Below are positions 24,818 to 41,998 of a DNA stretch of 64,000 nt, in pieces (within the stretch, counting starts at the first letter, position 1; every line of letters begins with the position of its first letter). This DNA comes from an uncultured Desulfobacteraceae bacterium (lineage in GTDB: Bacteria > Desulfobacterota > DSM-4660 > Desulfatiglandales > B25-G16). Below the pieces are notes generated by a model. That model saw only the letters and a list, made by a program, of their open reading frames with translations, was not told where the DNA came from and searched no databases. The position numbers and the translations under genes were made by a program. Location of the stretch: NCBI GenBank assembly GCA_964549945.1, contig CAZJXD010000001.1, forward strand, positions 84,346 through 148,345, given 5' to 3'.

Positions 24818-24872
24818 TTGACATAAAAACAGGGGCCCAATATAGTTCCGAGTAATTTGTATACTGTATACA
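24818..24872 (+). promoter_or_regulatory. Sigma70-type promoter TTGACA-17-TATAGT plus palindromic operator tgtatactgtataca
   Basis: The -35 element is at 24818-24823, the spacer is exactly 17 nt, and the -10 is at 24841-24846. The 15-bp perfect palindrome at 24858-24872 lies just downstream of the -10. The ATG of the OYE-type reductase is at 24904 with an AAGGAGG RBS. Confidence 0.55.
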
Positions 24873-24903: not shown

Positions 24904-26886
24904 ATGGGTACACTACTGTTTGAATGGGATTATTCATCGTATCCTGGGGCAGGGAAATACCCTCATCTTTTCAAGCCGATCCAGCTAGGCAATCTCACTA
25001 TCCCAAACCGGATAAAGTACGCTGCTACCGAGGAGAACCTGAACGGGAGAGACGGTTTCGTAACCGACGCGGGCGTTGCCTACCTCAGGGAGAGGGCCAA
25101 AGGTGTGGTGGGCGGGATATGCACCATGCAAGGTGTCTATATGGATAAGGGCAGGCAAGGCCAGGGGTATGTCGGTCAAGCCGCTGCCTGGGATGATAAA
25201 TTCATCCCTGGTTTGAAGCGGCTCGCAGATGTCATCCATGAGGCCAGAGCGGTGGCGGGCTGCCAGCTAATGCACTGCGGCCGCGTTGGAGCCGTTGAGA
25301 CGGAATACTGTCAGGGCCCATCACCAGTTCCCCAGCGATTGAGGATCTTCCGGCCGGTAAAGGAAATGAGCAAGGAGGATATAAAGCAGTGCCTTAAGGA
25401 GCACGTGGAGGCAACGGAACGCCTGTTAAAGGCGGGTTTTGACATCGTTGAGATTTCGGGTATCGTGGGCTACTTGCTCTCCAATTTCGTATCCAGCTAT
25501 ACCAATAGGCGGACCGATGAGTACGGGGGGGATATACGTGGAAGGATGAGGTTCGTCGTGGAATGCATCCGGGAGGTGAAAAAGGTATGCGGCGATGTGC
25601 CCGTGGGCATCAGGCTCTGTGCCGAGGAGCTCTTAGATGATGTGGGCGGAAACACGCCTGAGGAATCCATGATCACCTATGAGATGGCAGAGGAGGCGGG
25701 AGCGGATTATATGAGCGTGACCGCAGGCTGGCAGGAGTCGATCTATCCGGTGATCAGCAGGGATATTCCCCAGGGGACCTGGCTCCATCTCGCTAAACGC
25801 GCCAAACAGCACCTCACGATACCCGTCGCAATGGCGTATCGACTCTTTGACCCGGCGATTCCTCATAAGGCCATTGAGCAGGGAAAGCTGGATATATGGG
25901 AGATGTGCCGTCCCATGATCGCCGATCCACTGATGCCGAAGAAGGTCTTGGAAGGAAATGAGGAGGAAATAAGGCCCTGTGTTGCCTGCAATCTCTGCCT
26001 CGCAAGGCTGTTCAGGGATGCGCCCATGACCTGCTACATCAATCCCATCTGTGCCCATGAGTGGGATCCGAAATACGAGATCAAACCAGCGGAGATGACG
26101 AAGAACATCATGATTGTCGGCGCTGGTCCTGCGGGCCTGGAGTGCGCCTGGGTAGCCGCTGAGAGAGGCCACGAGGTGCATGTGTATGACAAGAGGGAGG
26201 AGCTGGGCGGCTCCATTATCGATGCCTCCAAGGCCCCCTATGGTGACGACGAACTGTACGGGCAGATACGATTCACCAAGGCCATGTGTGAGAAGAACGG
26301 GGTAGAGTTCCACTTGGGCACCGAGGTGACCCCCGAGGTGATCGAGGAGGAGATGCCAGACTCGGTAGTTCTGGCCACAGGGCCGAGGTACGTCAAGGGA
26401 ACAGCCCCGGGTTTTGACCGGGAAAACGTCGTCTCTGTTTTGGATGTGCTCAACGGGAAGGCTGAGGTAGGAGAAAAGGCTGTCGTTTGGGGAAATCTCA
26501 AGCCTGGGATCGGGGTAGCCCTCTACCTGGCCAAACAGGGCAAGAAGGTGACCATCGTGGGCAAAGATCGCAAGCTCGGCAAGGATATCAATCCTTCCTT
26601 TAAGTGGCGGTACGCGAGATACCTAATAGATAACAGGGTCAAGATTTACAATGACTGCGATATCGAAGAAATCACCAATGACGGTGTTATCGTGAAAACC
26701 TATGACGGCTATCGGATCCCGATCGAGGCCGACACCGTAATAACCTCCGAGAGGGAGGCGAATCCCGGGCTGAAGGATGTAGTCCAGGAAAACGGTATTG
26801 AGCTTTTTGTCATTGGAGATGCACTGGTACCCCGGAATCTCTCGAGTGCTGTTCATGATGGCTACCGGATAGGTCTCCGAATCTAA
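24904..26886 (+). CDS. Old-yellow-enzyme-family FMN/[4Fe-4S]/FAD oxidoreductase (2,4-dienoyl-CoA reductase-like enoyl-/aryl-CoA reductase)
   Basis: The ORF is 660 aa. The N-terminal TIM-barrel OYE region contains LFKPIQLGNLTIPNRIKYAATE and QLMHCGR. The cluster motif is RPCVACNLCLARLFRDAPMTCYINPIC (CxxCxxC-x11-C). The C-terminal region has the dinucleotide fold IMIVGAGPAGLECAWVAAERGHEVHVYD. Confidence 0.85.
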   Translation: MGTLLFEWDYSSYPGAGKYPHLFKPIQLGNLTIPNRIKYAATEENLNGRDGFVTDAGVAYLRERAKGVVGGICTMQGVYMDKGRQGQGYVGQAAAWDDKFIPGLKRLADVIHEARAVAGCQLMHCGRVGAVETEYCQGPSPVPQRLRIFRPVKEMSKEDIKQCLKEHVEATERLLKAGFDIVEISGIVGYLLSNFVSSYTNRRTDEYGGDIRGRMRFVVECIREVKKVCGDVPVGIRLCAEELLDDVGGNTPEESMITYEMAEEAGADYMSVTAGWQESIYPVISRDIPQGTWLHLAKRAKQHLTIPVAMAYRLFDPAIPHKAIEQGKLDIWEMCRPMIADPLMPKKVLEGNEEEIRPCVACNLCLARLFRDAPMTCYINPICAHEWDPKYEIKPAEMTKNIMIVGAGPAGLECAWVAAERGHEVHVYDKREELGGSIIDASKAPYGDDELYGQIRFTKAMCEKNGVEFHLGTEVTPEVIEEEMPDSVVLATGPRYVKGTAPGFDRENVVSVLDVLNGKAEVGEKAVVWGNLKPGIGVALYLAKQGKKVTIVGKDRKLGKDINPSFKWRYARYLIDNRVKIYNDCDIEEITNDGVIVKTYDGYRIPIEADTVITSEREANPGLKDVVQENGIELFVIGDALVPRNLSSAVHDGYRIGLRI

Positions 26887-26900
26887 GAAGGAGGTGAGCG

Positions 26901-27422
26901 ATGCCAGTTGATCCACAAAGAGAATTGACAAGATTGCATGATGCCTTAGGTATTTCACAAGCTGTCATTAAAAGTACCTTTTTCGAGTGGCGCCAAACGG
27001 CCCTTGATTTACTCGGGCCCGGTTCTGACCCACTGAACGTCGTCCTCAAGTTTTGGGAAACAGCCGGTATAGACGTTGCCAAGGGTTTCTTTCCCATGCT
27101 GGACCTGCGCAAGGGTGAGGAGGGCGTCATTCTTGATCTGGGTAGGGCCTTGGCCGGCACGGGAATTGCTAATGGGGCCGTGGTTACTGTTGAAAAAGGC
27201 GAGGCTCCCTTTGAAGCTCTCATCAGATGGCACAGATGTCCCTGGCCAACCTTTGCCAGACGCTACGGTGTCTCTATGAAGGAGGATCTCTTGGGCTGCG
27301 ACAGATTTCTTCAGACAATTGTTGCCGAGGCAAACGCCCTCCTGGGTACCGACTTTAAGATAGAGACGCAGAAGGCCATCCCAAGCGGCGATGGCCTGTG
27401 TCTCCGGAGACTATTCAAGTAA
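26901..27422 (+). CDS. Hypothetical small Cys-containing protein
   Basis: The ORF is 173 aa with a good RBS (GAAGGAGG). The pattern RCPWP...GCDRF...GLCLRRLF reminds me of the small L-2-amino-thiazoline-4-carboxylate-hydrolase-like family. That is an unverified recollection. Confidence 0.6.
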   Translation: MPVDPQRELTRLHDALGISQAVIKSTFFEWRQTALDLLGPGSDPLNVVLKFWETAGIDVAKGFFPMLDLRKGEEGVILDLGRALAGTGIANGAVVTVEKGEAPFEALIRWHRCPWPTFARRYGVSMKEDLLGCDRFLQTIVAEANALLGTDFKIETQKAIPSGDGLCLRRLFK

Positions 27423-27444
27423 GTAAATGACAGGAGGATGAAAC

Positions 27445-27651
27445 ATGGCAGCACAAGTCGACATGAACAAATGCACCATGTGCGGGGGGACAAAAGAACC
27501 TATCTGTGTTGAGATGTGTCCAGACCAGGCTATCAGGGTGCAAGACGATAGAATCGTGGTCACGGAGTTCCTGTGCGAAGACTGCAACGAGTGCGGCTTC
27601 AGATGCCCGGATCACGCTATTTCCCTTCCCCTTGAGCTGGTAACCTTTTAA
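27445..27651 (+). CDS. Small ferredoxin-like protein with two non-canonical Cys clusters
   Basis: The ORF is 68 aa with an AGGAGG RBS. The Cys clusters are CTMCGGTKEPICVEMCP and CEDCNECGFRCP. Confidence 0.8.
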   Translation: MAAQVDMNKCTMCGGTKEPICVEMCPDQAIRVQDDRIVVTEFLCEDCNECGFRCPDHAISLPLELVTF

Positions 27652-28374: not shown

Positions 28375-30174
28375 TCAATTGGCCCCATTTATTTCATAGA
28401 TTTTCATCATCTTTTTTTCTAGCCCCTCCTGCGCCAAGCGTATCTCTAAATCACACTGAAGGCACCGCTTTGCCTCTCGCTTTGCCCGCTCTTCATCGAA
28501 ACCGAGCTCAACCTCCCCAAGCCCCTCATGTCTCTCCTCAAGGGGCATGGTGGGCATGTTCTCCCTCTTGAGATCCGCAAATCCTTCCTCCCTCCTCCCC
28601 GTGTACGGCTGGGGGGAGATTCTATCTATTGCCAATTGCCCATTGCCCATCCCCGATTCAGAGATATCGCCATCCCCGCCCAAGAAGATATCAATGGAAC
28701 ACGCGGCCCTCCTTCCTGCGGCGATAGCATCGATAATGGTGCCGGGGGCCTTGGCCACATCACCGCCCACAAACACACCGGGCATCCCCGTTTCGAGGGT
28801 TTCGTCATCAAATATGATACACTCATTCTCAACCATTACCTCCCCATTGGCGCCGATACATGAGAGATCGGGGGCTTGACCTATTGCGAGGATCACCTGC
28901 TCGGTTCTCACCGTTTCCCGTATGTTCGCAAAATCTGGGCAGAACTTACCCTCCTCATCGAACACCGAGGTGCACCGCACGAGCTCTACGCCGGTGATAG
29001 TTCCGCTCTCCTCCAGTATCCTGCTCGGCCCCCATGAGGGCATGATCACAACGCCCTCCTCTATGGCCTGCTCGATTTCCCACTGGTTAGCCGGCATCTC
29101 CTCCCTGCATTCCAGGCAGGCCATTGTTACCTCCTTGGCACCGAGCCGTAAGGCGGTGAGCGCCACATCGATAGCCACATTGCCTCCCCCGACCACGAGC
29201 ACGTGATCCTTGAGGGCAACACCCTTTCCCTCGTTCACCTCGCGCAGGAAGTCAAGGCCCCACAGCACGTCATGGTGATTTCCCCCAGCGAGATCTATCC
29301 TCTTGCTGAGGTTTGCGCCAACTGCGATGAACACCGCTTCGTAGCCATCAGCCCTGAGGCTATCCAGGTCGAAATCCCTTCCCAGTTTTTGATTCGCCTT
29401 GAGCTCGATGCCGAGCTCGAGGATTCCCTTTATCTCCTCCTCCACCACGTTCTTGGGCAGGCGAAAATCGGGGATACCGAATCGCATCATCCCCCCTGGC
29501 TCGGGCATCTCCTCGAACACGGTGATGCGATGCCCCTTCTTCCGCAAGTAGAAGGCAGCGGTCAGGCCCGCAGGACCGGCACCGATAATCGCGACCTTGT
29601 GGCCGGTATCGGGGGCAAGCCTTGTGGCGCCCTCTGCCATCTCCGTCGCGTTATCAGCTGCGTAGCGCTTAAGCGCGCATATGGCAATGGGCTCATTGAC
29701 CTCCCCTCGCCTGCATGCATCCTCACAGGGATGGGTGCAGACACGACCCAGGATACCCGGAAAGGGCACCTTTTCTCGAATCAAGGCGTGCGCCTCATCG
29801 ATCTTCCCCTCTGCGATGAGCCTCAGGTATCCCGGTATATCGATTCCCGCGGGGCAGGCCTCAATACAGGGGGGAGCAGAGGGAATGAACTCCTTCGGGG
29901 CGAGGGCACGTAAAGGCCGCATGATATCGAGGATGGCGATGCCGTTTGGGCATACCTCCTCACACCTGCCACAGGTGGTGCAGGACCACGGATAGGGGGA
30001 GGCGGCGATCTCGTGGCTCAGGTCGAGCTCCACATGCCTCAGCACTCTTCTGATATTAAAGCCATTCACTCCGGTGAGGGGGCACGCGGAGCTACAGAGC
30101 CCGCATTGCTCGCAGGCACGAAACATGCTCACTTCATCGACGAACTTCTCGGCCAATCCTGTTCTAGTACCCAT
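28375..30174 (-). CDS. Fusion of HdrC-like di-[4Fe-4S] domain with NfnB/GltD-like FAD/NAD(P)H oxidoreductase
   Basis: The ORF is 599 aa. The N-terminal region has CEQCGLCSSACP ... CTTCGRCEEVCP. It then has CIEACPAGIDIPGYL...VCTHPCEDACRRG and VAIIGAGPAGLTAAFYLRKKGHRITVFE...GGMMRFGIPDFRLPK, typical of the glutamate synthase small-subunit family. Confidence 0.8.
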   Translation of the reverse strand: MGTRTGLAEKFVDEVSMFRACEQCGLCSSACPLTGVNGFNIRRVLRHVELDLSHEIAASPYPWSCTTCGRCEEVCPNGIAILDIMRPLRALAPKEFIPSAPPCIEACPAGIDIPGYLRLIAEGKIDEAHALIREKVPFPGILGRVCTHPCEDACRRGEVNEPIAICALKRYAADNATEMAEGATRLAPDTGHKVAIIGAGPAGLTAAFYLRKKGHRITVFEEMPEPGGMMRFGIPDFRLPKNVVEEEIKGILELGIELKANQKLGRDFDLDSLRADGYEAVFIAVGANLSKRIDLAGGNHHDVLWGLDFLREVNEGKGVALKDHVLVVGGGNVAIDVALTALRLGAKEVTMACLECREEMPANQWEIEQAIEEGVVIMPSWGPSRILEESGTITGVELVRCTSVFDEEGKFCPDFANIRETVRTEQVILAIGQAPDLSCIGANGEVMVENECIIFDDETLETGMPGVFVGGDVAKAPGTIIDAIAAGRRAACSIDIFLGGDGDISESGMGNGQLAIDRISPQPYTGRREEGFADLKRENMPTMPLEERHEGLGEVELGFDEERAKREAKRCLQCDLEIRLAQEGLEKKMMKIYEINGAN

Positions 30175-30195
30175 AAATCCTTATTTTTGATTTTT

Positions 30196-30256
30196 GATTT
30201 GCGATTTTCGATTGGTGAACTTGCTTTTTGCTGATCATCTCTCACAATCGCAAATC
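30196..30256 (-). other. Intercistronic hairpin (11-bp perfect inverted repeat) between the two Hdr-like genes
   Basis: The arms are gatttgcgatt (30196-30206) and aatcgcaaatc (30246-30256). The right arm touches the TAG stop (30256-30258) of the upstream gene. Confidence 0.5.
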
Positions 30257-32319
30257 TAAAATTTTTCAAGTCCCAGGTGTTTCACCATTTCCCTCATGGT
30301 ATTCGCGAACTTCGGGCCATCTGCGGCCGAACACCAGATATTCCAGAGCTTATCGGGATCATACCCCTTTCTCGCCAATCTCTTCTTCGCCTTCTTGATC
30401 CTCTGCTCGGCCGCGTAGTTGCCCTTGATATAGTGGCATGTGGGAAACTCACAGCCCGCCACAAGCACGCCCGCCGCACCCAGCTCAAAGGCCCTCTCTA
30501 TAAAGTCAACGGACACCCTTGCCGAGCACATCACCCGTATGAGCCGCGCGTTGGAAGGGTACTGAAGCCTGCTCACGCCTGCCATGTCCACTCCTCCCAG
30601 GGCACACCAGTGACACACAAACCCGATGATTTTCTCCTCAGCCCTCTCCTCCAGGGCAGCCTCCACCTGGGCGAGGATCTGCTCGTCTGAATAATGGATA
30701 ATGGTGACGGCGTTCTTGGGACAATCCGCTGCGCAGAGACCGCAGCCCTTGCACAGGGCCTTGATTACCTGTGGTTTCTCATCCACCCACTGGATTGCAC
30801 CATAGGGGCAATTTTTTTCGCACAACCCGCAGCCACTACAGAGATCCAGATCGATATCCGCCACGATTCCCTCAGCCTCAAGGAACCCCCTTTTCATGGG
30901 AATCGAGGCCCTCATGGCTGCTCCCGCACCCTCTTCCATAGACTCCTTCAGGCTCTTTGGAGATCGCGCGCATCCACACAGGGAGATGCCGTCGGAGGGA
31001 AAATCCAAAGGGCCGAGTTTTATGTGGGCCTCCTGGAAGAACCCATCGGGATTTGTAGAGACCTTGAGAAGGCCCTTGATCTCATCAACGGTATCATTGC
31101 CCTTGAAGCCTGTGGTGAGCACGATCAGGTCGGCAGGAATGCCGAGTTCCTTGCCGAGCAGCAGATCGTGCACGTGCACCGAGAGATTGCCGTCCTCCAC
31201 TCTCACCTCGGGGTACCGGTCATCGGGGAAACGTATGAATCGGGCTCCCGCCTTTTTCGCCGCCTCTAGATCCGACCCCTCCTCCCTCACCATGCTGAGA
31301 TCCCTGTAAAGGATATGCACGCGGAGAGCATCGTTGCGAGCCTTAAGGGTCAGCGCGTTTTTGACAGATATGTGGCATCCTATTGCACAACAACCGCGGG
31401 ATTCGTTTTTCGAGTTGACACAGTTGATGATCACCACGTCTCCTATATCACCGACCTCATCTCGTTTCAGCATCCCCTCAAATTCAAGCTGGGTAATCAC
31501 CCGAGGATCGTGGCCGTATTCGAATTGTCCAGCTGGTTCGATCTCCTTCATCCCGGTGGCCACAATGATGGTTGAGACATCGAGCTCCTCCCTTGACCCA
31601 TTTGCCCTTACTGTGACCTTATAGTTGCCAATGTATCCCTCGACGGCCTCTATCACGCCGTTTGTATATACCTTGATGTTTGGGTGAGACTCAACAAGGG
31701 CAACCGTGGAGTTCACGATCTCATCGGCCACTACTGTTCCATGATCGTGAGAGATGGCTGCAATACGGTTGAGAAGGCCGCCCAGCTTGGATTCCCTCTC
31801 CACGAGTATTGCGTGAAACCCCTGATCAGCTATGTGTAGTGCGGCGTTCATCCCGGCTATGCCACCCCCTAATATCAGGCAGTCCGTTTTCACGGGGAGC
31901 CGTATCTCCTGACCCTCCTCGAGAAGCGCGGCCTTGGCAACGCCCATCTTTACGAGATCCTTGGCCTTATCCGTTGCCTTTTTGGGGTCGTCTCGGTGAA
32001 CCCAGGAAGACTGTTCCCTGATGCTCACGAACTCAAGCAAGTAGGGATTCAACCCCGCCTCCTTGACTGTCCTCCTGAAAAGCGGCTCATGGGTCCTTGG
32101 CGTACACGATGCGATGACGACCCTGTTGAGGCTATGCTCTTTGATAAGCTCCTTCATCGTGGCGAGATAGTCCACCGAGCACGACCATTTTCCCTCATCG
32201 GCAAGGACCACGTGTTTTAGTCCCCTGGCATACTCGACGACCTCGGGCACATTCACGATACCCGCGATGTTCGAACCACAATCACAGATAAAGGCGCCTA
32301 TCCTGATTTCCTCGCTCAT
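30256..32319 (-). CDS. HdrA-like flavoprotein fused to MvhD-like C-terminal domain (QmoB-like architecture)
   Basis: The ORF is 687 aa. It contains ILGGGIAGMNAALHIADQG (FAD), ferredoxin motifs CSGCGLCEKNCP and CKGCGLCAADCP, and a C-terminal IIGFVCHWCALGGVDMAG...RVMCSARV (MvhD/FlpD-like). Confidence 0.85.
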   Translation of the reverse strand: MSEEIRIGAFICDCGSNIAGIVNVPEVVEYARGLKHVVLADEGKWSCSVDYLATMKELIKEHSLNRVVIASCTPRTHEPLFRRTVKEAGLNPYLLEFVSIREQSSWVHRDDPKKATDKAKDLVKMGVAKAALLEEGQEIRLPVKTDCLILGGGIAGMNAALHIADQGFHAILVERESKLGGLLNRIAAISHDHGTVVADEIVNSTVALVESHPNIKVYTNGVIEAVEGYIGNYKVTVRANGSREELDVSTIIVATGMKEIEPAGQFEYGHDPRVITQLEFEGMLKRDEVGDIGDVVIINCVNSKNESRGCCAIGCHISVKNALTLKARNDALRVHILYRDLSMVREEGSDLEAAKKAGARFIRFPDDRYPEVRVEDGNLSVHVHDLLLGKELGIPADLIVLTTGFKGNDTVDEIKGLLKVSTNPDGFFQEAHIKLGPLDFPSDGISLCGCARSPKSLKESMEEGAGAAMRASIPMKRGFLEAEGIVADIDLDLCSGCGLCEKNCPYGAIQWVDEKPQVIKALCKGCGLCAADCPKNAVTIIHYSDEQILAQVEAALEERAEEKIIGFVCHWCALGGVDMAGVSRLQYPSNARLIRVMCSARVSVDFIERAFELGAAGVLVAGCEFPTCHYIKGNYAAEQRIKKAKKRLARKGYDPDKLWNIWCSAADGPKFANTMREMVKHLGLEKF

Positions 32320-32323
32320 CCGA

Positions 32324-33679
32324 CTAACCTTTTGTGTTTCTCGATACCGCTTTCATGGCAGCCGCGCCCGCCTGGACGACCGATTCGGAGATATCGATTG
32401 GACCGGTGGCACCACCGCACACGTATATTCCCTCCACGTTGGTTTCAAGCGGTGCCATCACCGGTTCCCGCTCCTTGAAGAACCCCAGATCATCAAGCTC
32501 TATTTTCAGTACCTTTGCCAATCTCTTGTTTCGCTCGCTCGGGATAAGCCCGGTGGAAAGGACCAGGAGTTCCACCTGCTGCTGCTCGATTTCACCCGTA
32601 TCCAGGTTCTCGTACCTCACGGTCAAATTCCTGGTCTCAGGATCCTCGAACACATCGTAGGGCCTGGCCTTTACATACCTGACGCCGCTTTCCCTGGCCT
32701 TCTGATAAAATCCCCAAAAACCCTTCCCATATGCCTTGAGGTCGTTATAGAATACCGTGGTCTCAGCGGTTGCATCGTGCTCCTTGTTGATAATGGTCTG
32801 CTTTGTGGCCACCATACAGCATACCTTCGAGCAGTACGGCAAGCCCTTGGTCAAACCCCTACCTGCGCATTGAATCCAGGCGATCTTTTTCGCGTGTTTC
32901 CCATCGGAGGGCCTGATAATCTCGCCCGCTGTTGGGCCTCCGGCATTCATCAACCTCTCAAACTGGGTGTTCGTGATCACGTTGTCATAGATATTGTAGC
33001 CGTAGAGCCCTGTGTCCGGCTCCGCAGATCGTATGCCCGTGGCCACGATAATCCCATCAACCTCGATGTCCATAGGCCTGTCAGCCTGCCAGAGGACCAC
33101 CGCATCCTTTCCCTCCTCTTTGCATGCCTTCACGCACAGCGCAATGGGGCACTCCCTGCACTGGCTACAGTCCACCACGCATCCCCCAACGCAGGCCCCC
33201 TGCTCGCGCATCTTTCCATAGCGGCACCGGGGATCGATGACCGATACATTTGGCACGGCCTGCGGAAAGGGCATGTATATCAGCTTCCTCATGCCGCCAA
33301 TCTTTCCATCCAGTTCATCGGGAACAATCACCGGGCAGGCCTCAACGCATTTTCCGCAGCCGGTACACTTCTGCTCATCGATATATCTGCCCTTTTTGAT
33401 CAACCTCGCGGTGAAGGTGCCATTGTGTTCGTTGACCCTTCTCACCTCTGTGTTGGTGAGTATTTCTATGTTGGGATGATTATCCACCTCATACATCAGG
33501 GGAGATTCTATGCATATGGAGCAGTCGTTAGTGGGAAAGGTCTTATCCAGCCTCGCCATCATCCCGCCTATGCTGGCCGTATCATCGACGAGGTACACCT
33601 TGCAGCCATAGTCGGCTGCGTTCAGGGCCGCATTGATGCCGGCAATGCCGCCGCCTATTATCAAGATCGCCTCGGACAT
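32324..33679 (-). CDS. HdrA-like FAD/FeS flavoprotein (QmoA-like)
   Basis: The ORF is 451 aa. It contains ILIIGGGIAGINAALNAADYG, CTGCGKCVEACP and IQCAGRGLTKGLPYCSKVCCMVATK, the HdrA signature arrangement. Confidence 0.85.
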   Translation of the reverse strand: MSEAILIIGGGIAGINAALNAADYGCKVYLVDDTASIGGMMARLDKTFPTNDCSICIESPLMYEVDNHPNIEILTNTEVRRVNEHNGTFTARLIKKGRYIDEQKCTGCGKCVEACPVIVPDELDGKIGGMRKLIYMPFPQAVPNVSVIDPRCRYGKMREQGACVGGCVVDCSQCRECPIALCVKACKEEGKDAVVLWQADRPMDIEVDGIIVATGIRSAEPDTGLYGYNIYDNVITNTQFERLMNAGGPTAGEIIRPSDGKHAKKIAWIQCAGRGLTKGLPYCSKVCCMVATKQTIINKEHDATAETTVFYNDLKAYGKGFWGFYQKARESGVRYVKARPYDVFEDPETRNLTVRYENLDTGEIEQQQVELLVLSTGLIPSERNKRLAKVLKIELDDLGFFKEREPVMAPLETNVEGIYVCGGATGPIDISESVVQAGAAAMKAVSRNTKG

Positions 33680-33808
33680 AGTTTTTGTTTATGGAGTTTA
33701 TGGAGTTTGTTGTGTTTCTTGGGTTCTTTTTCTATATTTAAGTCAGGTTGATCGGTTTACCGTTCATGGTTCCCGGTTCCCGAATTGCATAGCGAAGCGA
33801 GCTTGCGA

Positions 33809-34066
33809 TTATATCTCCGTTACTATGATCGCTTCGGCTTTACACACGGCCTCGCAGGTGCCGCAGCCCAAGCAGTTCTGGCTACGAGCCGGAAAGGACC
33901 TTCCTGCCCTCATCTCAAAGACATCCACCGGACACAACTCAGCGCACTCACCGCAGCCATTACATCTCGCGCTTTCGACTTTTATCAGATAAACGAAGTA
34001 TTCCCTCTTTTCCCTTCCCACGTGATGCCATTTTTTCTTGACAAAGATTTTGTATACAGTATACAT
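33809..34066 (-). CDS. 2x[4Fe-4S] ferredoxin; start codon uncertain
   Basis: The core is VESARCNGCGECAELCPVDVFEM...QNCLGCGTCEAVCKAEAIIV. The track ATG (34064-34066) lies inside the palindromic operator and upstream of the predicted minus-strand TSS. An in-frame GTG at 34019-34021 is an alternative start. A purine tract GGGAAGGGAAAAGAGGGAA follows it. Confidence 0.6.
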   Translation of the reverse strand: MYTVYKIFVKKKWHHVGREKREYFVYLIKVESARCNGCGECAELCPVDVFEMRAGRSFPARSQNCLGCGTCEAVCKAEAIIVTEI

Positions 34067-34217: not shown

Positions 34218-36242
34218 ATGGCCCAAGAAAGGAAGCTGTACCCCTCGTTTCGTAATCCATTATGCCTGAAGCTCGATCGTCCCCTTCCAGAGGAGATAGC
34301 GGTAATCGGGGCAGGAACGATCGGGCCCGATATTGGGTATTACCTGAAATCAGCCCTTCCGGGAATAAAACTCTTTCTCGTGGATGTGGTTGAGGAGCCC
34401 TTGAAGAACGCCGAGAAGAGGATCTCCGGATACGTTCAGAAGGCAGCGGACAGAAGGAAGATGACAGAAGATCAGGCCAACGCAATCCTCAGCAATATCA
34501 CCTACACCATGGACTACGAGAAGATCAGTGGATGCGATCTGGTGATTGAGGCCGCCACGGAGAACGTAGCCTTAAAGAAGAAGGTATTCGAGGACGTTGA
34601 AGCCCTTGTCAGCGAGAAGGCCATCCTCACCTCGAATACCAGCTCCATACCTGCTGACAGGATCTTCGCGAACATGAAAAAGCCAGAGAGGTCCACTATA
34701 ACCCACTTCTTTGCGCCGGCGTGGCGAAGCCTGCCGGTGGAGGTAATTCGGTGGGAGGGAGCCAGCCAGGAGGTCGTTGATTACCTGTTCTGGTTTTTCG
34801 CCCACACGGGCAAGGCCCCCCTTATAACCGACAACGCCATTTGCTTCATGTTGGACCGGGTCTTCGATAACTGGTGCAATGAGGCCGCCTATCTGCTGGA
34901 GCATGCATCCGCGAGCCAGATAGACAAGGCCGCGGAGGAGTTCGTGTTTGCGGGCCCTTTCTATGTCCTCAATATGGCACGGGGTAACCCCATTATCGTT
35001 GAAACCAACACCCTCCAGATGGAAGAGGGGCCCCACTATAAACCGGCTAGGATCCTGGAATCTGTTGACACGTGGCAAACGCATAGACCAGGTTCAAAGG
35101 TGGACGTTCCAGGGGAGTTAGGTAATCTAATCAGAGACAGATTGCTGGGCATTCTCTTGTCGCAGTCCTTTGATATCATCGATAGGGGGATCGGCACCAG
35201 GGAAGACCTCAATTTCGGTTGCCAGATCGCCCTGGGATTTAGGAAAGGGCCATTTGATATCATCAGGGAACTCGGTGAGGGAGAGGTCGAGCGGATCATG
35301 GCCGAATTCCAGAAGGAAAGGCCCGGATTTCCGGGGCCGAGGCAACCCCTCTCCGCATACCAGGAGTTCCCGCGCCACCTCATCGTTGATGAGATGGACG
35401 GGGTTGTGATTATCACCCTCAGGAGACCGCAGGCGATGAATGCCATCAGCGACGAGATAAATGATGAGATCCTCTCGGTGTTGAGGGAACACATCGATAA
35501 CCCGGAGGTGAGGGGATTTGTGATCACCGGATACGGGAACAGCGCCTTCTCGGCGGGTGCGGATATCGGTAAGTTCCCGCAGACCCTCGGAAACAAGGAT
35601 GCGGCGCTTCACTACGCAAAGGACTGCGCACAGGTACAGCTCTTCATGGACCGGATGGAGAAACCGATAGTCGCGGCGATAAACGGCATGGCCCTGGGTG
35701 GGGGTCTGGAGGTGGCGCTTCGATGTCATGGAATGGTGGCCACCAAAAACGCGATCTTCCAGTTCCCTGAGATCACCCTCGGGATCCTGCCAGGCATCGG
35801 CGGGTGCATCGTCCCCTATCGGAAGTGGCCTCAGGGAGCGAAGCTCTTTCATGAGATGATCTGCTTTGCCAGGCGCATTACCGCCAATGAGGCTTCCGAT
35901 ATCGGTATGGTGGATAGGATCGCAGATGACTACTCTGAGATGATCAGGGAGGCGGTAAAAGCGGTCCACGGCTTGCAGGGGAAGATCAGAAGGATCCCCG
36001 ATGGACCTGTTGATATCCCGGAGATAACCATCCCTGAGAAGCCCATGGCGGGAAAGCTGCCCTTAAGCAAGGAGGCCATCTCGATTATCGCAAAGACCAT
36101 CAAGACAGGAGCGGCTGCCGGTTCCTTTGCCGAGGCCCTTGAGATAGGGTATCGAGGATCCGCTGAGATTGCCTGCACAGAGGCGGCAAAGGAAGGGATC
36201 TCGGCCTTCCTCGAGAAGAGAAGGCCGGAGTTCAAGAGGTAG
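34218..36242 (+). CDS. Bifunctional 3-hydroxyacyl-CoA dehydrogenase (N) / enoyl-CoA hydratase (C) fusion
   Basis: The ORF is 674 aa. IAVIGAGTIGPDIGYYL is a NAD Rossmann fold at the N-terminus. The C-terminal crotonase fold has VVIITLRRPQAMNAISDEI...FVITGYGNSAFSAGADI...AAINGMALGGGLEVAL. The domain order is the reverse of FadB. Confidence 0.85.
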   Translation: MAQERKLYPSFRNPLCLKLDRPLPEEIAVIGAGTIGPDIGYYLKSALPGIKLFLVDVVEEPLKNAEKRISGYVQKAADRRKMTEDQANAILSNITYTMDYEKISGCDLVIEAATENVALKKKVFEDVEALVSEKAILTSNTSSIPADRIFANMKKPERSTITHFFAPAWRSLPVEVIRWEGASQEVVDYLFWFFAHTGKAPLITDNAICFMLDRVFDNWCNEAAYLLEHASASQIDKAAEEFVFAGPFYVLNMARGNPIIVETNTLQMEEGPHYKPARILESVDTWQTHRPGSKVDVPGELGNLIRDRLLGILLSQSFDIIDRGIGTREDLNFGCQIALGFRKGPFDIIRELGEGEVERIMAEFQKERPGFPGPRQPLSAYQEFPRHLIVDEMDGVVIITLRRPQAMNAISDEINDEILSVLREHIDNPEVRGFVITGYGNSAFSAGADIGKFPQTLGNKDAALHYAKDCAQVQLFMDRMEKPIVAAINGMALGGGLEVALRCHGMVATKNAIFQFPEITLGILPGIGGCIVPYRKWPQGAKLFHEMICFARRITANEASDIGMVDRIADDYSEMIREAVKAVHGLQGKIRRIPDGPVDIPEITIPEKPMAGKLPLSKEAISIIAKTIKTGAAAGSFAEALEIGYRGSAEIACTEAAKEGISAFLEKRRPEFKR

Positions 36243-36325
36243 GTGGCTTTGACGTTATCCTGAGGGATGGGGAATCCATATAGACCCGTGATTTGTGTTC
36301 GGGCTGCTGCAAGAGGAGAAGCACT

Positions 36326-37516
36326 ATGGAGCTATTTAGGGATATGACAATACTATCCCTGGAGCAGGCAACAACCCTGCCCTACCTCACCTACAGGCTC
36401 GTCCAGGACGGGATGAATGTAGTTAGAGTCGAACATCCGGTCTATGGTGACCCAAACCGGATGATCGGGGAGAACTACCTCAAAGAAGAGCGGATGCATT
36501 GCTATTACCTCTGTATTAATGCAGGGAAAAAGGCGATTACCCTTAACCTGGCAGAGGAAAAGGGCAAGCAAATCTTACGAGAGCTTATCGTGAAACTCAA
36601 GGTTGATATCTTTGCCACCAATCAACTGCCGAGAAACTATGGAAAGTTGGGAGTGGATTACGAGACGTTAAGAGAGATTAAATCGGATATTATCTGGCTG
36701 GGCATTACAGGCTTTGGGCCCGAGATTAATGAGGCGGCTTATGAGCCGATCCTCGAGGCGAGATCCGGATTAATGGAGGTAACCGGAGAGCCTGACGGTG
36801 AACCCCAATCGCTTGGTATACCCTTGGCCGATATGGGCACAAGCGAACACGCCTACGGGCTGCTGATGAAGGCCCTATTGAAGCGGGAGAGGACAGGCGA
36901 GGGATCAAGGATCGATATATCTATGCTTGAGTCGGCAACCTCCTGGCTCACCGTGGCAACGACGTTAACGGCAACCTTTGGCGAAAAAGTGACAAGATCC
37001 GGAAATACCCATCAATACTTTGCACCTGTATCCGTTTTTAAGACAAAGAACGGCTATGTATACATGGCCGTTGGTAATGATCGACAATGGAAGGCTTTTG
37101 CGTCGCTGCCCCGGTTTCAGCTCCTCGATAAACCGGAATACGAGAAAAACGAGGGCAGAATACATGACGTAGTGAACCTGAACAAATCGATCAGCGAGGT
37201 CTTAGAAACGCTTACCTCGGAAGAGCTCATTGAAAAGTTCAACAAGATAGGGCTCCCCATAAGCAAGATCAACACCATCCCCGAGGTATTGGATGATCCC
37301 CTCATGAAAAGGAGGCTTCTTAAATCCAGGGATTCAAAATCGGGGCTTGAACTCACACTTGCACCAGCACCGTTTGTGACACCATTTCTCGATGAGTCTA
37401 ACAACACGCTTTCCTTCCCCCCCAGATTCGGAGAGCACAACAGGGAGATATATTGCCACATCCTCGGCTATTCCGAGGACGAGGTAACCAGGTTCAAGGA
37501 AGAAGGGGTAATATAG
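36326..37516 (+). CDS. Family III CoA-transferase (CaiB/BaiF family)
   Basis: The track ORF starts at 36293. The Met at 36326 has AGGAG 8 nt upstream. It contains ILSLEQATTLPYLTYRLVQDGMNVVRVE, GIPLADMGTSEHAYGLLMKAL and FAPVSVFKTKNGYVYMAV. Confidence 0.85.
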   Translation: MELFRDMTILSLEQATTLPYLTYRLVQDGMNVVRVEHPVYGDPNRMIGENYLKEERMHCYYLCINAGKKAITLNLAEEKGKQILRELIVKLKVDIFATNQLPRNYGKLGVDYETLREIKSDIIWLGITGFGPEINEAAYEPILEARSGLMEVTGEPDGEPQSLGIPLADMGTSEHAYGLLMKALLKRERTGEGSRIDISMLESATSWLTVATTLTATFGEKVTRSGNTHQYFAPVSVFKTKNGYVYMAVGNDRQWKAFASLPRFQLLDKPEYEKNEGRIHDVVNLNKSISEVLETLTSEELIEKFNKIGLPISKINTIPEVLDDPLMKRRLLKSRDSKSGLELTLAPAPFVTPFLDESNNTLSFPPRFGEHNREIYCHILGYSEDEVTRFKEEGVI

Positions 37517-37518
37517 CC

Positions 37519-38310
37519 ATGCGAATCATCGTCCTTATCAAGCAGGTGCCCGACACCACGGAGATCAAGATCGATCAGAAGACCGGCACACTCATCAGGG
37601 AGGGTGTAGAGAGCATTATCAATCCTGATGACAGGCATGCCATTGAGCTCGCCGTGACATTAAAAGGGGATCATGGGGGAAAGGCCACGGTGCTCTCAAT
37701 GGGCCCTCCCCAGGCGATCGATGCTATCTCCGAGGCAATGGGGATGGGCATCGATGAGGGAATACTGCTTACCGACAGGAATTTTGCAGGTGCGGATACC
37801 TGGGCCACCGCATTCACGCTTGGAATGGCCATAAAGAGGCTAAGGAGATACGATCTGATCATCTGCGGAAGGCAGGCGATCGACGGCGACACGGCCCAGA
37901 TAGGCCCCCAGGTCGCGGAGTTCTTGGGCCTGCCCCAGCTTACCTATGTGAGGGGGATCGAGGAGATCGACGAGAAACGCATCGTGGTCCAGAGAAGCCT
38001 GGAGGACGGCTACGAGAGGATGGCTTCCCCGCTTCCCGCCTTGATTACCGTCATAGGCGAGATAAACAGGCCGAGGTCTCCAAGGGTGGATCTCCTCATC
38101 GACGCCTGCAAGGATGTGGCGAATATCAAGATCTGGGATGTGGCGGACTTAGGTCTCACTGTGCAGGAGGTCGGTTTAAGAGGCTCTCTCACACGGGTGA
38201 TCAAGACGTTTCCCCCCAAGTCCAAGAGGGAGGGGGAGATGTTAAAGGGCAGTAAGGATGAAGTAGTGAGTCAACTGTTAGATAGGATGCACAGCAAACA
38301 TCTTGTGTAA
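37519..38310 (+). CDS. etfB: Electron transfer flavoprotein beta subunit
   Basis: The internal Met at 37519 gives the canonical MRIIVLIKQVPDTTEIKIDQKTGTLIREGVESIINPDDRHAIELAV. The longer track ORF overlaps the preceding gene. Confidence 0.9.
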   Translation: MRIIVLIKQVPDTTEIKIDQKTGTLIREGVESIINPDDRHAIELAVTLKGDHGGKATVLSMGPPQAIDAISEAMGMGIDEGILLTDRNFAGADTWATAFTLGMAIKRLRRYDLIICGRQAIDGDTAQIGPQVAEFLGLPQLTYVRGIEEIDEKRIVVQRSLEDGYERMASPLPALITVIGEINRPRSPRVDLLIDACKDVANIKIWDVADLGLTVQEVGLRGSLTRVIKTFPPKSKREGEMLKGSKDEVVSQLLDRMHSKHLV

Positions 38311-38331
38311 GGAGAACGTAGCGTTTTGGCT

Positions 38332-38454
38332 GGAGTATTGGAGCATTGGAGAAGTGGAGCAATGGATTAATGTCTGAACGTAACTCTATCGTAGAGAAAT
38401 GTAAAAAAATCCTCTGATCACCATTACTCCAGCACTCCAATTCTCCATTATTCC
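38332..38454 (+). other. Long imperfect hairpin in the etfB-etfA spacer
   Basis: The left arm is ggagtattggagcattggagaagtggagcaatgg (38332-38365). The right arm is ccattactccagcactccaattctccattattcc (38421-38454). They are complementary at 27 of 34 positions by my count. The arms are built from repeated GGAG/CTCC words. Confidence 0.5.
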
Positions 38455-38476
38455 ATAAATCTTAAGGGGATTACCT

Positions 38477-39670
38477 ATGGCTATAGCGATCGATGGGGAT
38501 CTCTGCAACGGTTGCGGGAGATGTATAAAGGTCTGTCCATACGCCGGGGTAGAGCTGCGAGAGGGAGGGGCGGTACTCACCGAAAGATGCACGGCCTGTG
38601 GCGCATGCATAGAGGTATGTAAGGTCGAGGCCATCCGCTCTGATATCAAAGAGAGAGAGATACCGGATTTTAGCGATTATCAAGGTGTATGGGTATTCGC
38701 GGAGCAGAGGGATGGGGCTCTCAGCAGGGTAACCTTTGAGCTCTTAGGCCTCGGGCAGAGGCTCGCCGAAGAGCTCAATCAGGAGCTCTCGGCGGTGCTT
38801 CTGGGGCATGAGGTAGCGCATCTGGTCGAGGAGCTCCAGGAGTTCGGGGCCCAGAATATCTACCTTGCCCAGCACAAACTTCTCGCCCATTACCAGACAA
38901 ATCCGTATGCGAAGGTTCTCTCTGGGATCGTATCGGAGCTTAAGCCCTGCATCCTTCTGATCGGCGCGAGCAGCATCGGACGTGATCTCGCGCCCAGGGT
39001 TTCCATGAGTCTCAATCTCGGGCTCACCGCCGACTGCACGGGGCTCGCCGTTGATCCAAACGATGGCTCCCTGCTTCAGACCAGACCGGCCTTTGGTGGA
39101 AACGTGATGGCAACGATAAAGACTCCCTACAGCAGGCCTCAGATGACAACGGTGAGGCCGGGCGTGATGGAGGCGAAACGGAGTGATGGTTCGAAACAGT
39201 GCAGGGTAATTGAGAAGAAGGTGAAATTGCTGGACAAAGACAGGCTCACCGAGGTCTTGGAGGCGGTGCGGGAGAGGAAAAGTGGCGTCGATCTCTGCGA
39301 TGCCACGGTGATTGTGGCAGGCGGAAGGGGTGTAGGATCGAAGGAGGGTTTGGAGTGTATATTCTCGCTTGCCGAGGCTCTGGATGGCGAGGTCGCTGGC
39401 ACGAGGATGGTCATCGAGGAGGGATGGCTTCCGGCAGAGAGGCAGGTAGGGCAGACAGGTCAGACGGTGAGGCCCGAGCTCTACATTGCATGTGGTATAT
39501 CCGGCGCGATCCAGCACAGGGCCGGAATGCTCGGATCGCGCTATGTGGTTGCCATTAACACCGATGAGAGGGCCCCCATCTTCGAGGTGGCCGACTGGGG
39601 TATCGTTGGAAACCTTCACGAGATTGTCCCCACATTGGCCGGCGCACTGAGAGAGAGAAAGGCGGGATAG
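38477..39670 (+). CDS. etfA: Electron transfer flavoprotein alpha subunit with N-terminal 2x[4Fe-4S] ferredoxin domain
   Basis: The ORF is 397 aa. It has CNGCGRCIKVCP and CTACGACIEVC in the first 55 aa. The EtfA fold follows, with VIVAGGRGVGSKEG, QVGQTGQTVRPELYIACGISGAIQH. Confidence 0.9.
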   Translation: MAIAIDGDLCNGCGRCIKVCPYAGVELREGGAVLTERCTACGACIEVCKVEAIRSDIKEREIPDFSDYQGVWVFAEQRDGALSRVTFELLGLGQRLAEELNQELSAVLLGHEVAHLVEELQEFGAQNIYLAQHKLLAHYQTNPYAKVLSGIVSELKPCILLIGASSIGRDLAPRVSMSLNLGLTADCTGLAVDPNDGSLLQTRPAFGGNVMATIKTPYSRPQMTTVRPGVMEAKRSDGSKQCRVIEKKVKLLDKDRLTEVLEAVRERKSGVDLCDATVIVAGGRGVGSKEGLECIFSLAEALDGEVAGTRMVIEEGWLPAERQVGQTGQTVRPELYIACGISGAIQHRAGMLGSRYVVAINTDERAPIFEVADWGIVGNLHEIVPTLAGALRERKAG

Positions 39671-39674
39671 GGAG

Positions 39675-40811
39675 ATGATGGTACGTTCGGATATGGAGGA
39701 ACTTCTGCGTAGGGTCATGGCACGGTTTGTGGATGAAGAGGTTATCCCCGTTGCCAGGGAGATCGATGATAGGGGTGAGTTCCCCTTTGACCTATTCAAA
39801 AGGCTCGCCGATATGGGCATCCTTGGAATCAGGTATCCCAAGAAAGCGGGAGGTTCAGGGGGAAATACTACCCTTTACTGTATCTCGGTTGAGGAGTTGG
39901 CACGGGGGCTCATGAGCCTGGCCGCGATCACCGCCATGCAGTGCCTTATGGCCACCAACGGCCTCTATCTCTATGGTACCAAGCAGATGCATGAGGAGTA
40001 CTTACGGCCTGCCTTGAGGGGTGAGAAGATCGGCGCATTTCAGCTCACCGAGCCCGAGGCGGGATCGGATCTCGGCAATGTTCGTACCAGGGCCACCAAG
40101 GTCAAGGATGGGTGGGTCATCAACGGAATGAAGACCTGGTCAACGAGCGGCCCCTATGGAGACTTCCACACGGTGCTGTGCCAGACCGATCTGGACAGGG
40201 GATTAAAGGGGCTCATGTTCGTCTTCATCCCCAGCGATACCCCCGGGTTCTCTCACAGCAAGAAGTTCGACACGCTGGGCACGAGAACATCGGCCCTCTC
40301 AGAGATCTACTTCAATAATTGTCATGTTCCTGACGAATACATGCTGGGGGAGCTGGGCAGGGGCCTTGATGTCTTGTTGACCATCTTGGCGGAGATCAGG
40401 GTGATGACCGGGTGTCTGGCCATTGGATTGCTTCGCGCGGCAATGGATGATTCCATAAGGTATTGTAAGGAGAGGGTACAGTTTGGCAGGCCGATCGGCA
40501 CGTATCAGCTCATCCAGGCAAAGATCGCGAATATGGCCGTCAATCTAGAGGCGAGCAACCTCATGTGCTATAAGGTGACCCATCTCGTTGACAAAGGCAT
40601 TGCCTGTTTAAATGAGGCGTCCATGGCCAAGTATTTTGCAACCGAGGCCGCATGCTCCGCGGCGGATGAGGCCATGAGGATCTTCGGCGCCTACGCCTAT
40701 TCAATGGAATACAACGTGCAGAGGTATTACAGGGACAACCGTTTCTTGCTCTACGGCGGGGGGACGCACGAGGTGCTTCAGACCACGATTGCGAGGCAGT
40801 ACCTGCGGTAG
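39675..40811 (+). CDS. Acyl-CoA dehydrogenase
   Basis: The ORF is 378 aa. It contains GAFQLTEPEAGSD, WVINGMKTWSTSG, QFGRPIGTYQLIQAKIANM and YGGGTHEVLQTTIAR. These match ACAD family motifs, including the C-terminal catalytic-Glu context. Confidence 0.9.
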   Translation: MMVRSDMEELLRRVMARFVDEEVIPVAREIDDRGEFPFDLFKRLADMGILGIRYPKKAGGSGGNTTLYCISVEELARGLMSLAAITAMQCLMATNGLYLYGTKQMHEEYLRPALRGEKIGAFQLTEPEAGSDLGNVRTRATKVKDGWVINGMKTWSTSGPYGDFHTVLCQTDLDRGLKGLMFVFIPSDTPGFSHSKKFDTLGTRTSALSEIYFNNCHVPDEYMLGELGRGLDVLLTILAEIRVMTGCLAIGLLRAAMDDSIRYCKERVQFGRPIGTYQLIQAKIANMAVNLEASNLMCYKVTHLVDKGIACLNEASMAKYFATEAACSAADEAMRIFGAYAYSMEYNVQRYYRDNRFLLYGGGTHEVLQTTIARQYLR

Positions 40812-40835
40812 CGGTGTAAAAAGACGATTGATCAC

Positions 40836-41549
40836 ATGGAAAAAGGACCACTACATACGAACAAAGGGAATTCTACCCTGATAAAGCCCATTAAAAAGGA
40901 GAACCTCGGGAGCCAGGTCTTTGAGCAGATAAAGGGGATGATCCTGAGGGGGGAGATCCCTCCCGAAAGACGCATGATAGAAAGCGAGATTGCCCTCTCA
41001 ATGGGCATTAGCAGAACCCCAGTCAGAGAGGCAGTACATAAGCTTGAGGCAGAAGGCTTCCTCACGCCCCTTCCCAAGGGAGGGTATGTGGTGAGAGGGC
41101 TCACCATCTCCGATATCGAGGACACCTTCGACATCCGGAGTATTCTGGAGAGCTTTGCCGGGTATCTCACCGCCAAGAGGCATGTTGAGGATGAGCTTAT
41201 CGCTCTGGAGGTGAAGATAGATGAGTTTCAGCGATATCTGGACGGAGGTAATCTAAAAAGACTCGCCGTGGTAAATACCGAGTTCCATGAAGCCCTTTAC
41301 GCAATGAGCAAGAGCCCTCGGTTAACAAAGATGATTCATGGTCTCAGGGATGAGATCTACTTTTTAAGAAAGATCATACTCAAATCGGAGGAGATGGCTC
41401 GATTGTCCAATAAGGATCATAGAGAGATAGTAGATGCCATAAAGAAAAGAGAGGCGGAAAAGGTAGAGAGGCAGCTCAAAGAGCATATCTTAAGGGGTAA
41501 GGACTTTGTCCTCAATGAAATCAAGAAGGGAAATGTGAGCATTAGCTAA
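40836..41549 (+). CDS. GntR-family transcriptional regulator, FadR-type (FCD C-terminal domain)
   Basis: The ORF is 237 aa. The winged HTH is SEIALSMGISRTPVREAVHKLEAEGFL. The all-helical C-terminal domain has EFHEALY and DHREIVDAI, which are FCD-like His/Asp ligand positions. Confidence 0.85.
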   Translation: MEKGPLHTNKGNSTLIKPIKKENLGSQVFEQIKGMILRGEIPPERRMIESEIALSMGISRTPVREAVHKLEAEGFLTPLPKGGYVVRGLTISDIEDTFDIRSILESFAGYLTAKRHVEDELIALEVKIDEFQRYLDGGNLKRLAVVNTEFHEALYAMSKSPRLTKMIHGLRDEIYFLRKIILKSEEMARLSNKDHREIVDAIKKREAEKVERQLKEHILRGKDFVLNEIKKGNVSIS

Positions 41550-41582
41550 CCCGCGACTAACAAGGATAGATGTGGAGAAGAC

Positions 41583-41981: not shown

Positions 41982-41998
41982 TGGTACCTGGGTTGAGC

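Follow-up and report, generated by a model that had tools for sequence, protein, structure and literature searches.

Tandem GTATAC elements as predicted operators of a GntR/FCD repressor in a catabolic island of an uncultured Desulfobacteraceae bacterium

Introduction

The GntR-family regulator Atu1419 of A. fabrum, a member of the FCD/VanR group, has been crystallised on the sequence ATGTATACAT (PDB 6z74). Its residue Arg45 reads the G of the GTATAC core, and a change of this G to A abolishes binding (PMC7797058). NanR of E. coli, another GntR regulator with an FCD domain, binds as one dimer per GGTATA repeat, and three dimers load cooperatively via a 32-residue N-terminal extension (PMC8012715). 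For operators of the FadR subfamily, the general pattern NyGT-Nx-ACNy was given by Rigali 2002, as cited in Suvorova et al. 2015 (PMC4494728).

A protein of a different fold acts on a closely similar sequence in G. sulfurreducens, where HgtR (GSU3364) gives a footprint on TTGTATACAGTATACTAA at positions +11 to +23 of gltA (PMC2817479). HgtR is a 62-aa protein, predicted to be of the ribbon-helix-helix type, that represses gltA and has a global energy-metabolism regulon (PMC2817479). Sites similar to that of HgtR precede icd-mdh, frdC, atpG, nuoA, sfrB, and a gntR gene; HgtR was reported in Geobacter only; and the GntR-like protein GSU3370 also shifted the gltA promoter carrying the same sequence (PMC2817479).

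Here, we analyze a 64-kb stretch of DNA from an uncultured Desulfobacteraceae bacterium (the window) and describe a predicted regulon of its catabolic island, in which one repressor would act through three operators on four transcription units. Systems in which a GntR/FCD repressor controls a catabolic island along with its own operon are well known; the one predicted here is mildly novel in the tandem architecture of its GTATAC units and in the identity of its element with the HgtR site.

Results

Tandem GTATAC units in the window

The 15-mer pattern TGTATAC-N-GTATACA (written TGTATACNGTATACA / GTATACNGTATAC) was scanned along the window. The scan returned two exact matches, TGTATACTGTATACA (24858-24872) and TGTATACAGTATACA (34051-34065), and one match with 1 mismatch, TGTATACTGTATACC (55249-55263), which confirms the three positions reported in a first-pass annotation of this DNA, as well as its statement that the copies are intergenic (3/3 sites). 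An overlapping fourth match with 2 mismatches at 55256-55270 represents a third GTATAC-like unit that continues the same 7-bp period. Dinucleotide-preserving shuffles of the window predict 0.02 matches at ≤2 mismatches, and four matches were reached in 0/100 shuffles. Relaxing the scan of the window to 3 mismatches gave no extra site, and no match at ≤2 mismatches was found in 432 kb of unrelated loci, many of which are from Desulfobacterales. With 0.02 matches expected against three loci observed, a chance origin of the sites is excluded. The GTATAC hexamer itself occurs 10 times in the window, and 6 of the 10 copies are inside the three sites. Restriction-site avoidance of GTATAC was considered and rejected, as 10 copies compared to about 15 expected amount to no strong bias.

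The three sites, which we call O1, O2, and O3, have the extended sequence (T/C)TGTATAC-W-GTATAC in common. Each can be decomposed into TTGTATAC-W-G plus C-W-GTATACAT, i.e. into two near-perfect copies of the Atu1419 10-mer that are offset by 7 bp, and in variant sites elsewhere the inner hexamers are constant and the outermost T/A positions vary (e.g. GGTATACCGTATACC in locus L255, and O3 of the window). Because of these two properties, the element is best read as two adjacent GTATAC dimer sites (three at 55.25 kb) and not as one long palindrome. In their repeat geometry, O1 and O2 each have two units and O3 has three, all with the 7-bp period.

These features set the window's sites apart from the operators of the known FCD regulators to which they are otherwise similar. 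The rule that GntR operators are A/T-rich palindromes with a GT..AC core, which the first-pass annotation had invoked, is indeed the rule of the family (PMC4494728), and GTATAC is present twice in each site. According to the same paper (PMC4494728), FadR-subfamily operators are likewise A/T-rich, have the GT..AC core, and are found in the regulator's own promoter or divergon, but they are usually single palindromes with a GT-to-AC distance of 3 nt, whereas this distance is 2 nt in the tandemly duplicated GTATAC of the window. The close hexamer repeats of NanR, (GGTATA)3, draw a parallel to the three units of O3; the NanR repeats, however, are direct, non-palindromic, and spaced by 8-9 bp, and the units in the window are palindromic with a 7-bp period.

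Promoters and gene units

Each copy was said to overlap or directly follow a promoter, and this holds: O1 is downstream of one, and O2 and O3 are positioned over -10 regions. The predicted operators are unstranded features. O1 (TGTATAC-T-GTATACA, 24858..24872, an exact match) occupies approximately +5 to +20 of the predicted OYE-operon promoter TTGACA-17-TATAGT (24818..24846, plus strand, 11/12 matches in a consensus scan); it begins 11 nt downstream of this promoter and ends 32 nt upstream of the OYE start codon. O2 (TGTATAC-A-GTATACA, 34051..34065, also an exact match) has its centre between -35 boxes that face each other, TTGACA at 34038-34043 (plus strand) and TTGACT at 34077-34072 (minus strand), and covers both predicted -10 regions. 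O3 (GTATAC-T-GTATAC-C-GTACTC, 55249..55270), with its three units in a 7-bp period, overlaps the -10 box and the spacer of the minus-strand promoter TTGACA (55283-55278)-17-TATACA (55260-55255). The description of all these promoters as near-consensus stands for site 1 (11/12) but not for sites 2 and 3, which are weaker: their TATACA '-10' boxes are devoid of the conserved final T, so that only one of the three promoters, that of site 1, passes the consensus test.

The four units of the predicted regulon are arranged as follows. Unit 1, the OYE operon (24904..27651, plus strand; delineated from Pfam, NCBIfam, and sequence reading), encodes an OYE/FadH-like flavoenzyme (24904-26886; Pfam, NCBIfam), a protein of 173 aa for which Pfam gave no match (26901-27422), and a small ferredoxin (27445-27651). 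Unit 2, the Hdr/Nfn-like operon (28375..34021, minus strand; Pfam, open reading frames, and synteny in the related loci L002 and L006), encodes a ferredoxin with an inferred GTG start (~33809-34021), an HdrA-like protein (32324-33679), an HdrA/FlpD-like protein (30256-32319), and an NfnB/GltD-like protein (28375-30174). Unit 3 (34218..45442, plus strand; Pfam, NCBIfam, and synteny), predicted to be autoregulated, starts with genes for a 3-hydroxyacyl-CoA dehydrogenase/enoyl-CoA hydratase (HCDH), a family III CoA-transferase, EtfB, EtfA, and an acyl-CoA dehydrogenase, and continues with GntR, a B12-binding subunit, an acyl-CoA mutase, and an acyl-CoA ligase. Unit 4, the TAXI-TRAP operon (51668..55129, minus strand; Pfam and translation), encodes a predicted lipoprotein (54737-55129), a TAXI-type TRAP solute-binding protein (53649-54668), and a fused DctQM-like permease (51668-53617), and may extend into SdhA-like and DUF1989 genes. 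NCBIfam supplied no equivalog-level names for the enzymes.

The dctP promoter, TTGACA-18-TACACT at 55359-55388 of the window, is kept in the related loci L001 and L002 and has no operator. As dctP possesses this conserved, motif-free promoter of its own, DctPQM-PaaK was left out of the predicted regulon; together with the downstream 4-hydroxybenzoyl-CoA-reductase-like genes, it appears to be under separate regulation.

The GntR/FCD regulator

The regulator is a 237-aa protein encoded on the plus strand at 40836..41549 (Pfam). Its GntR winged helix-turn-helix domain (PF00392, residues 26-86, E = 3.9e-14, above the Pfam cut-off) is preceded by ~25 residues, the orthologs being similar in length, and is followed by an FCD domain (PF07729, residues 96-218, E = 6.9e-25). 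His151, His195, and His217 are invariant among 8 orthologs, which is consistent with an FCD metal site. A search of the six-frame translation of the window with the GntR/FCD profile found this one GntR/FCD gene only, in accord with the earlier statement that it is the sole regulator of its family in the window and resides inside one of the operons it would control. The only other regulator seen in the window is a LuxR-type protein (4068-4748).

Atu1419 (6z74) is the third-best PDB match of the window's GntR. Although the overall identity of the two proteins is low (phmmer E = 7e-19), they are alike in domain architecture and have an identical recognition helix, ISRTPVREA, and residues Glu49, Arg60, Thr61, and Arg64 of the window's protein align with the DNA-contacting Glu34, Arg45, Thr46, and Arg49 of Atu1419. 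The likeness extends to the operator, which in both systems has the GTATAC core (ATGTATACAT in Atu1419), is found over -10 boxes, and is autoregulatory or predicted to be so. Atu1419, however, is a tetramer that loops DNA between single 10-bp palindromes 109-190 bp apart, whereas the units in the window are adjacent, with a 7-bp period. The Atu1419 effector, methylene-THF, is unlikely to apply to the window's GntR.

Conservation of the motif at GntR-mutase operon promoters

The closest relatives of the window are Desulfobacteraceae metagenome-assembled genomes (MAGs). In eight MAG loci from Desulfobacteraceae or "Deltaproteobacteria", the gene order is the same and the encoded GntR is 69-80% identical to that of the window. 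Of the close relatives, two (L002 and L006) include the ferredoxin/HCDH spacer containing O2, and both have the exact 15-mer there. In these two loci, CTTGACA..TTTTGTATACAGTATACA..TAGTCAAGA, which includes the -35 boxes of site 2, is invariant and the remaining spacer has diverged, with a ~230-bp insertion in L006. The OYE site is kept in L030 (same MAG as L001) together with its -35 and -10 boxes and the SD sequence, and its flanks have diverged.

In distant orthologs drawn from genome and metagenome collections, the GntR-B12-mutase trio is constant and the head of the operon varies. The leading gene encodes CoAT3 in L068, L072, L085, L128, L213, and L210, GntR itself in L214, L215, and L220, and HCDH in loci of the window type, and the motif is found at the promoter whichever gene leads; in the distant orthologs, it has 0 or 1 mismatch. 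In L215, the motif is downstream of a complete TTGACA-17-TATAAA promoter, and in L210 it is over the -10 region. Comparative footprinting, which the first-pass annotation had suggested, shows that the motif tracks the promoter of the operon with the GntR ortholog: it is present at the promoter of the GntR-B12bd-mutase operon in 12/12 loci with a readable promoter (the window, L002, L006, L068, L072, L085, L128, L210, L213, L214, L215, and L220), over a range of GntR identity of 40-80%.

Second sites were found within a few kb in some relatives, before a carboxyltransferase gene in L213, and between a glyoxalase-fold gene and an ABC transporter in L079, which shares a contig with L068. Glyoxalase-fold protein and carboxyltransferase genes recur near motif sites in the relatives. 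The glyoxalase-fold proteins of the window (27901-28320) and L079 (2189-2635) have the size and family of methylmalonyl-CoA epimerase, and the presence of these genes suggests a methylmalonyl-CoA-type branch in the regulated pathway.

No motif was found in the retrieved DNA of the orthologous loci L004, L005, L007, and L008 (GntR 69-70% identical), which excludes the HCDH/Hdr promoter region; L005 contains zero GTATAC hexamers in 20.7 kb. In L004, L005, and L008, a 260-290-nt spacer before GntR contains a conserved promoter-like stretch, TTGTAGAAATTCCAATACAT, and in L007 the gap before GntR is of similar length, with a sequence unlike that of the other three. We tentatively read the TTGTAGAAATTCCAATACAT stretch as a promoter, TTGTAG-18-TATAAG, which fits it better than an operator whose spacing has changed.

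The comparison also bears on the idea that the repeats are not a protein operator at all, being instead an intrinsic, TATAC-type -10 element of the promoters, a repeat that arose by chance, or the remains of a mobile element. TATACA does double as the putative -10 box at sites 2 and 3. At site 1 and in L215, however, the element is downstream of a complete -35/-10 promoter; the shuffles leave 0.02 matches to chance, and no repeat family was found around the sites; and in spacers that have otherwise diverged, no element is better conserved than the 15-mer. We consider this explanation to be very improbable.

A recognition helix signature shared across phyla

A scan of one genome per species yielded at least 120 loci with the exact 15-mer (125 sites). 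About 80 of the 125 listed sites lie between genes and have a gene start no more than 350 bp away, and ~45 of the listed loci (≥120) are from Desulfobacterota-type lineages. Among the matches listed, a gene with GntR and FCD domains is present in the 8-kb block of 31-32 of 120 loci, and in 23-24 of those, the motif is ≤300 bp upstream of the start of the GntR/FCD gene or at it; in 4 more of these listed loci, the motif lies ahead of the leading gene of the operon to which the regulator belongs. The listed motif-GntR loci belong to Alphaproteobacteria, Cyanobacteria, Bacillota, Acidimicrobiia, Deinococcota, and Desulfobacterota, with examples in Sphingopyxis, Falsiruegeria, several cyanobacteria, Isobaculum, Planococcus, Acidimicrobiia, Calidithermus, and Thiotrichaceae.

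GntR and FCD domains are present in all 27 motif-linked regulators that were aligned. Those outside the window's orthologs are only 21-30% identical to the window protein, and SR(T/M/I)P(V/I/L)REA is found in 27/27, with S-R-x-P-x-R-E invariant. The SRxPxRE signature is absent from 18/18 FCD regulators compared that have no motif nearby: 16 FCD regulators located beside TAXI genes without the motif have SRVT(V/I)R(E/D)A (13 proteins) or no Arg (3 proteins), and the helix in L009 and L010, which have no motif, is SRVTIR(E/A)A. As the helix signature and the motif co-vary, this protein-DNA relationship points to GntR as the reader of the motif. The helix SRTPVRE is insufficient as a predictor on its own: of 80 metagenomic loci chosen for this helix, many of them on short contigs, ~17 have the motif at ≤2 mismatches, and a handful have it at ≤1 mismatch, all upstream of the regulator or its operon.

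The TAXI loci were also tried as a neutral background for GntR density and rejected in this role, since 16/42 carry a GntR/FCD gene of their own, which makes the Fisher test uninformative; they were reused as the helix contrast given above. Distant Desulfobacterales TAXI-TRAP homologs are regularly preceded by a different GntR/FCD gene (helix SRVTVREA) with no 15-mer nearby (L165, L167-L169, L171, L173, L178, L179, L182, L183, and L185-L187), and this looks like a separate TAXI-linked GntR system. In the Clostridia loci L012, L039, L049, and L071, the exact 15-mer is upstream of pyruvate formate-lyase-like (glycyl radical) genes, and no GntR gene is present in the 8-kb block.

HgtR and the Geobacter sites

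The Geobacter HgtR operator resembles that of the window in its DNA core, TTGTATACAGTATAC, in the position of the repressor just downstream of the start site, as at site 1, and in the presence of a gntR gene with a site in its own promoter (Ueki and Lovley 2010; PMC2817479). The 13-nt core of the window motif is identical to the HgtR site. The two systems differ in that the protein shown to bind in Geobacter is a 62-aa ribbon-helix-helix protein (PF19807) and not a GntR regulator, that the regulon is one of TCA-cycle and energy genes, and that the lineage is another.

This likeness raises the possibility that the window's sites are bound, instead of by GntR or alongside it, by a ribbon-helix-helix repressor like HgtR whose gene is outside the window. 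Besides the identical core and the position of the footprinted site relative to the start (PMC2817479), palindromic hexamers in tandem with a 7-bp period would suit cooperative ribbon-helix-helix dimers. Moreover, among the matches listed, the Geobacter/Desulfuromonas 15-mer matches reproduce the published HgtR regulon, as they precede icd in 9 loci (L033, L047, L059, L063, L095, L106, L107, L113, and L122), mdh in 3 loci (L046, L114, and L115), and gntR. On the other hand, an HgtR (PF19807) profile, which we built from the protein recovered via a published primer and which finds 31/31 positive controls, was run over the window translated in six frames, L001-L130, and L205-L284 (the GntR-mutase loci) and gave no match. 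The source-named HgtR homologs listed, which are close relatives of HgtR, are from Desulfuromonadales or generic Deltaproteobacteria/Proteobacteria MAGs, with none named as Desulfobacterales, whereas the relatives of the window are Desulfobacteraceae. The motif also adjoins GntR/FCD genes in phyla without a known HgtR. Furthermore, the predicted targets in the window are acyl-CoA catabolic and transport genes and not HgtR's TCA-cycle/energy set, and the window is Desulfobacteraceae-like rather than of the Geobacter/Desulfuromonadales kind. We therefore regard a role for an HgtR-like protein at these sites as unlikely.

A GntR gene adjoins the motif in the Geobacter/Desulfuromonas loci L015, L023, L045, L088, L103, and L105, where it is divergent from a Trk-like channel gene. 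The cloning primers of GSU3370 encode MKKPMEKH... and ...AALQLDI, the primer used for "gntR" primer extension encodes ETIRDAI, and all three peptides match the motif-adjacent GntR clade of Geobacter-type loci. Because of these matches, the HgtR target "gntR" is probably GSU3370 itself, and GSU3370 probably reads the same element. In a Desulfuromonadaceae MAG (L134, 1726-1740), a 2-mismatch match, AATATACCGTATACA, is located ~55 bp upstream of hgtR, which hints at HgtR autoregulation.

A probably inserted block and the TAXI-TRAP unit

In L001, L002, L005, and L207, dctPQM-paaK directly follows the mutase gene. The block that separates them in the window (~43850-55310) and is absent between mutase and dctP in these four loci contains genes for the ligase, a V4R protein, two SdhA-like proteins, DUF1989, the TAXI-TRAP system, and the lipoprotein; its G+C content is lower, 0.41-0.47 in parts. 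L008 keeps a 5' remnant of the ligase gene. Given the arrangement in the relatives, the block looks like an insertion or the product of differential loss. O3 is just inside it, and homology to the upstream region of the relatives' dctP begins near 55310. Within the block, positions 46473-48484 and 49523-51534 constitute a 2,012-bp direct duplication, 100% identical and 3,050 bp from start to start, that carries an SdhA/FrdA-like flavoprotein gene with its flanks and reflects a very recent segmental duplication event or, alternatively, an artefact of the assembly.

The best relative of the TAXI binding protein in the genome collection is 34% identical, and its 42 homologous loci are motif-free. 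In L215, TAXI-TRAP and ligase genes are inside the GntR-mutase operon, and for this reason we count the TAXI unit of the window in the same regulon. The arrangement in L215 also lends support to the earlier suggestion that the AT-rich block is functionally tied to the catabolic cluster. Of the four-unit regulon outlined in the first-pass annotation, the site at the promoter of the regulator's own operon, the OYE site, and the link to TAXI (through L215) are supported, with site 3 standing outside the ortholog comparison.

It is nevertheless conceivable that a paralogous GntR/FCD protein with the same helix, encoded outside the window, controls some of the sites, most likely O1 and O3, and that the GntR of the operon acts at O2 only. 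The 15-mer is shared by regulators with only 21-30% identity to each other; in Desulfobacterales, it is also found ahead of genes (carboxyltransferase, PLP enzyme, and POR-like) whose 8-kb blocks lack a GntR gene; and site 3 is within the putatively inserted block. This division of labor is, however, an improbable one given that (i) the window has a single GntR/FCD gene, (ii) O1, O2, and O3 share the extended sequence described above, and (iii) the second sites of the relatives cluster a few kb from the GntR-mutase operon (the L068/L079 contig and L213).

Discussion

Considering (i) the position of the element at promoters, (ii) its phylogenetic footprints, (iii) its tracking of the operon irrespective of the leading gene, (iv) its co-occurrence with the regulator, (v) the helix signature, and (vi) the crystal precedent of Atu1419, the motif is likely to be the operator of the GntR/FCD repressor encoded at 40836-41549, which would control the four units. 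The original interpretation of the palindrome as a GntR operator is hence supported, as a prediction, by promoter tracking, the helix signature, and the Atu1419 precedent.

We propose the following model, in which GntR binding, repression, stoichiometry, and the effector are what we infer. In its effector-free state, GntR would bind the tandem GTATAC-N-GTATAC element, which covers the -10 region at sites 2 and 3 and lies just downstream of the start site at site 1. The bound protein would block RNA polymerase at the OYE, Hdr/Nfn-like, and TAXI-TRAP units and at its own beta-oxidation/Etf/mutase/ligase unit. Each GTATAC would correspond to the minimal site for one FCD dimer seen in the Atu1419 crystal, and, on this premise, two dimers (three at site 3) would load side by side, as NanR does on GGTATA repeats; NanR demonstrates that dimers of an FCD regulator can be packed in this way. 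Binding of a pathway metabolite, a carboxylate or an acyl-CoA, to the FCD domain would then release the DNA.

Such a regulon would join enzymes of an unassigned substrate into one pathway and tie the putatively inserted block to it. With the enzymes linked in this way, the effector of GntR would name the substrate. The association of the 15-mer with FCD regulators across phyla additionally offers a ready rule for the annotation of similar operators.

A further, more tentative possibility is that GTATAC-N-GTATAC represents a widespread, uncatalogued class of FCD-GntR operators, comprising two dimer sites 7 bp apart and used for autoregulation from Cyanobacteria to Desulfobacterota, onto which HgtR was recruited in Geobacter beside a GntR of the GSU3370 type. 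If so, two unrelated repressors would compete or cooperate on one operator, and the published HgtR regulon would in part be under GntR control as well. The shared element, in any case, raises the question of dual GntR/HgtR control in Geobacter.

The Atu1419 10-mer ATGTATACAT occurs once in the window, at 37056-37065, inside the coding region of the CoA-transferase. This copy is probably due to chance, and, by analogy to the degenerate intragenic site of Atu1419, it could conceivably function as an internal auxiliary site.
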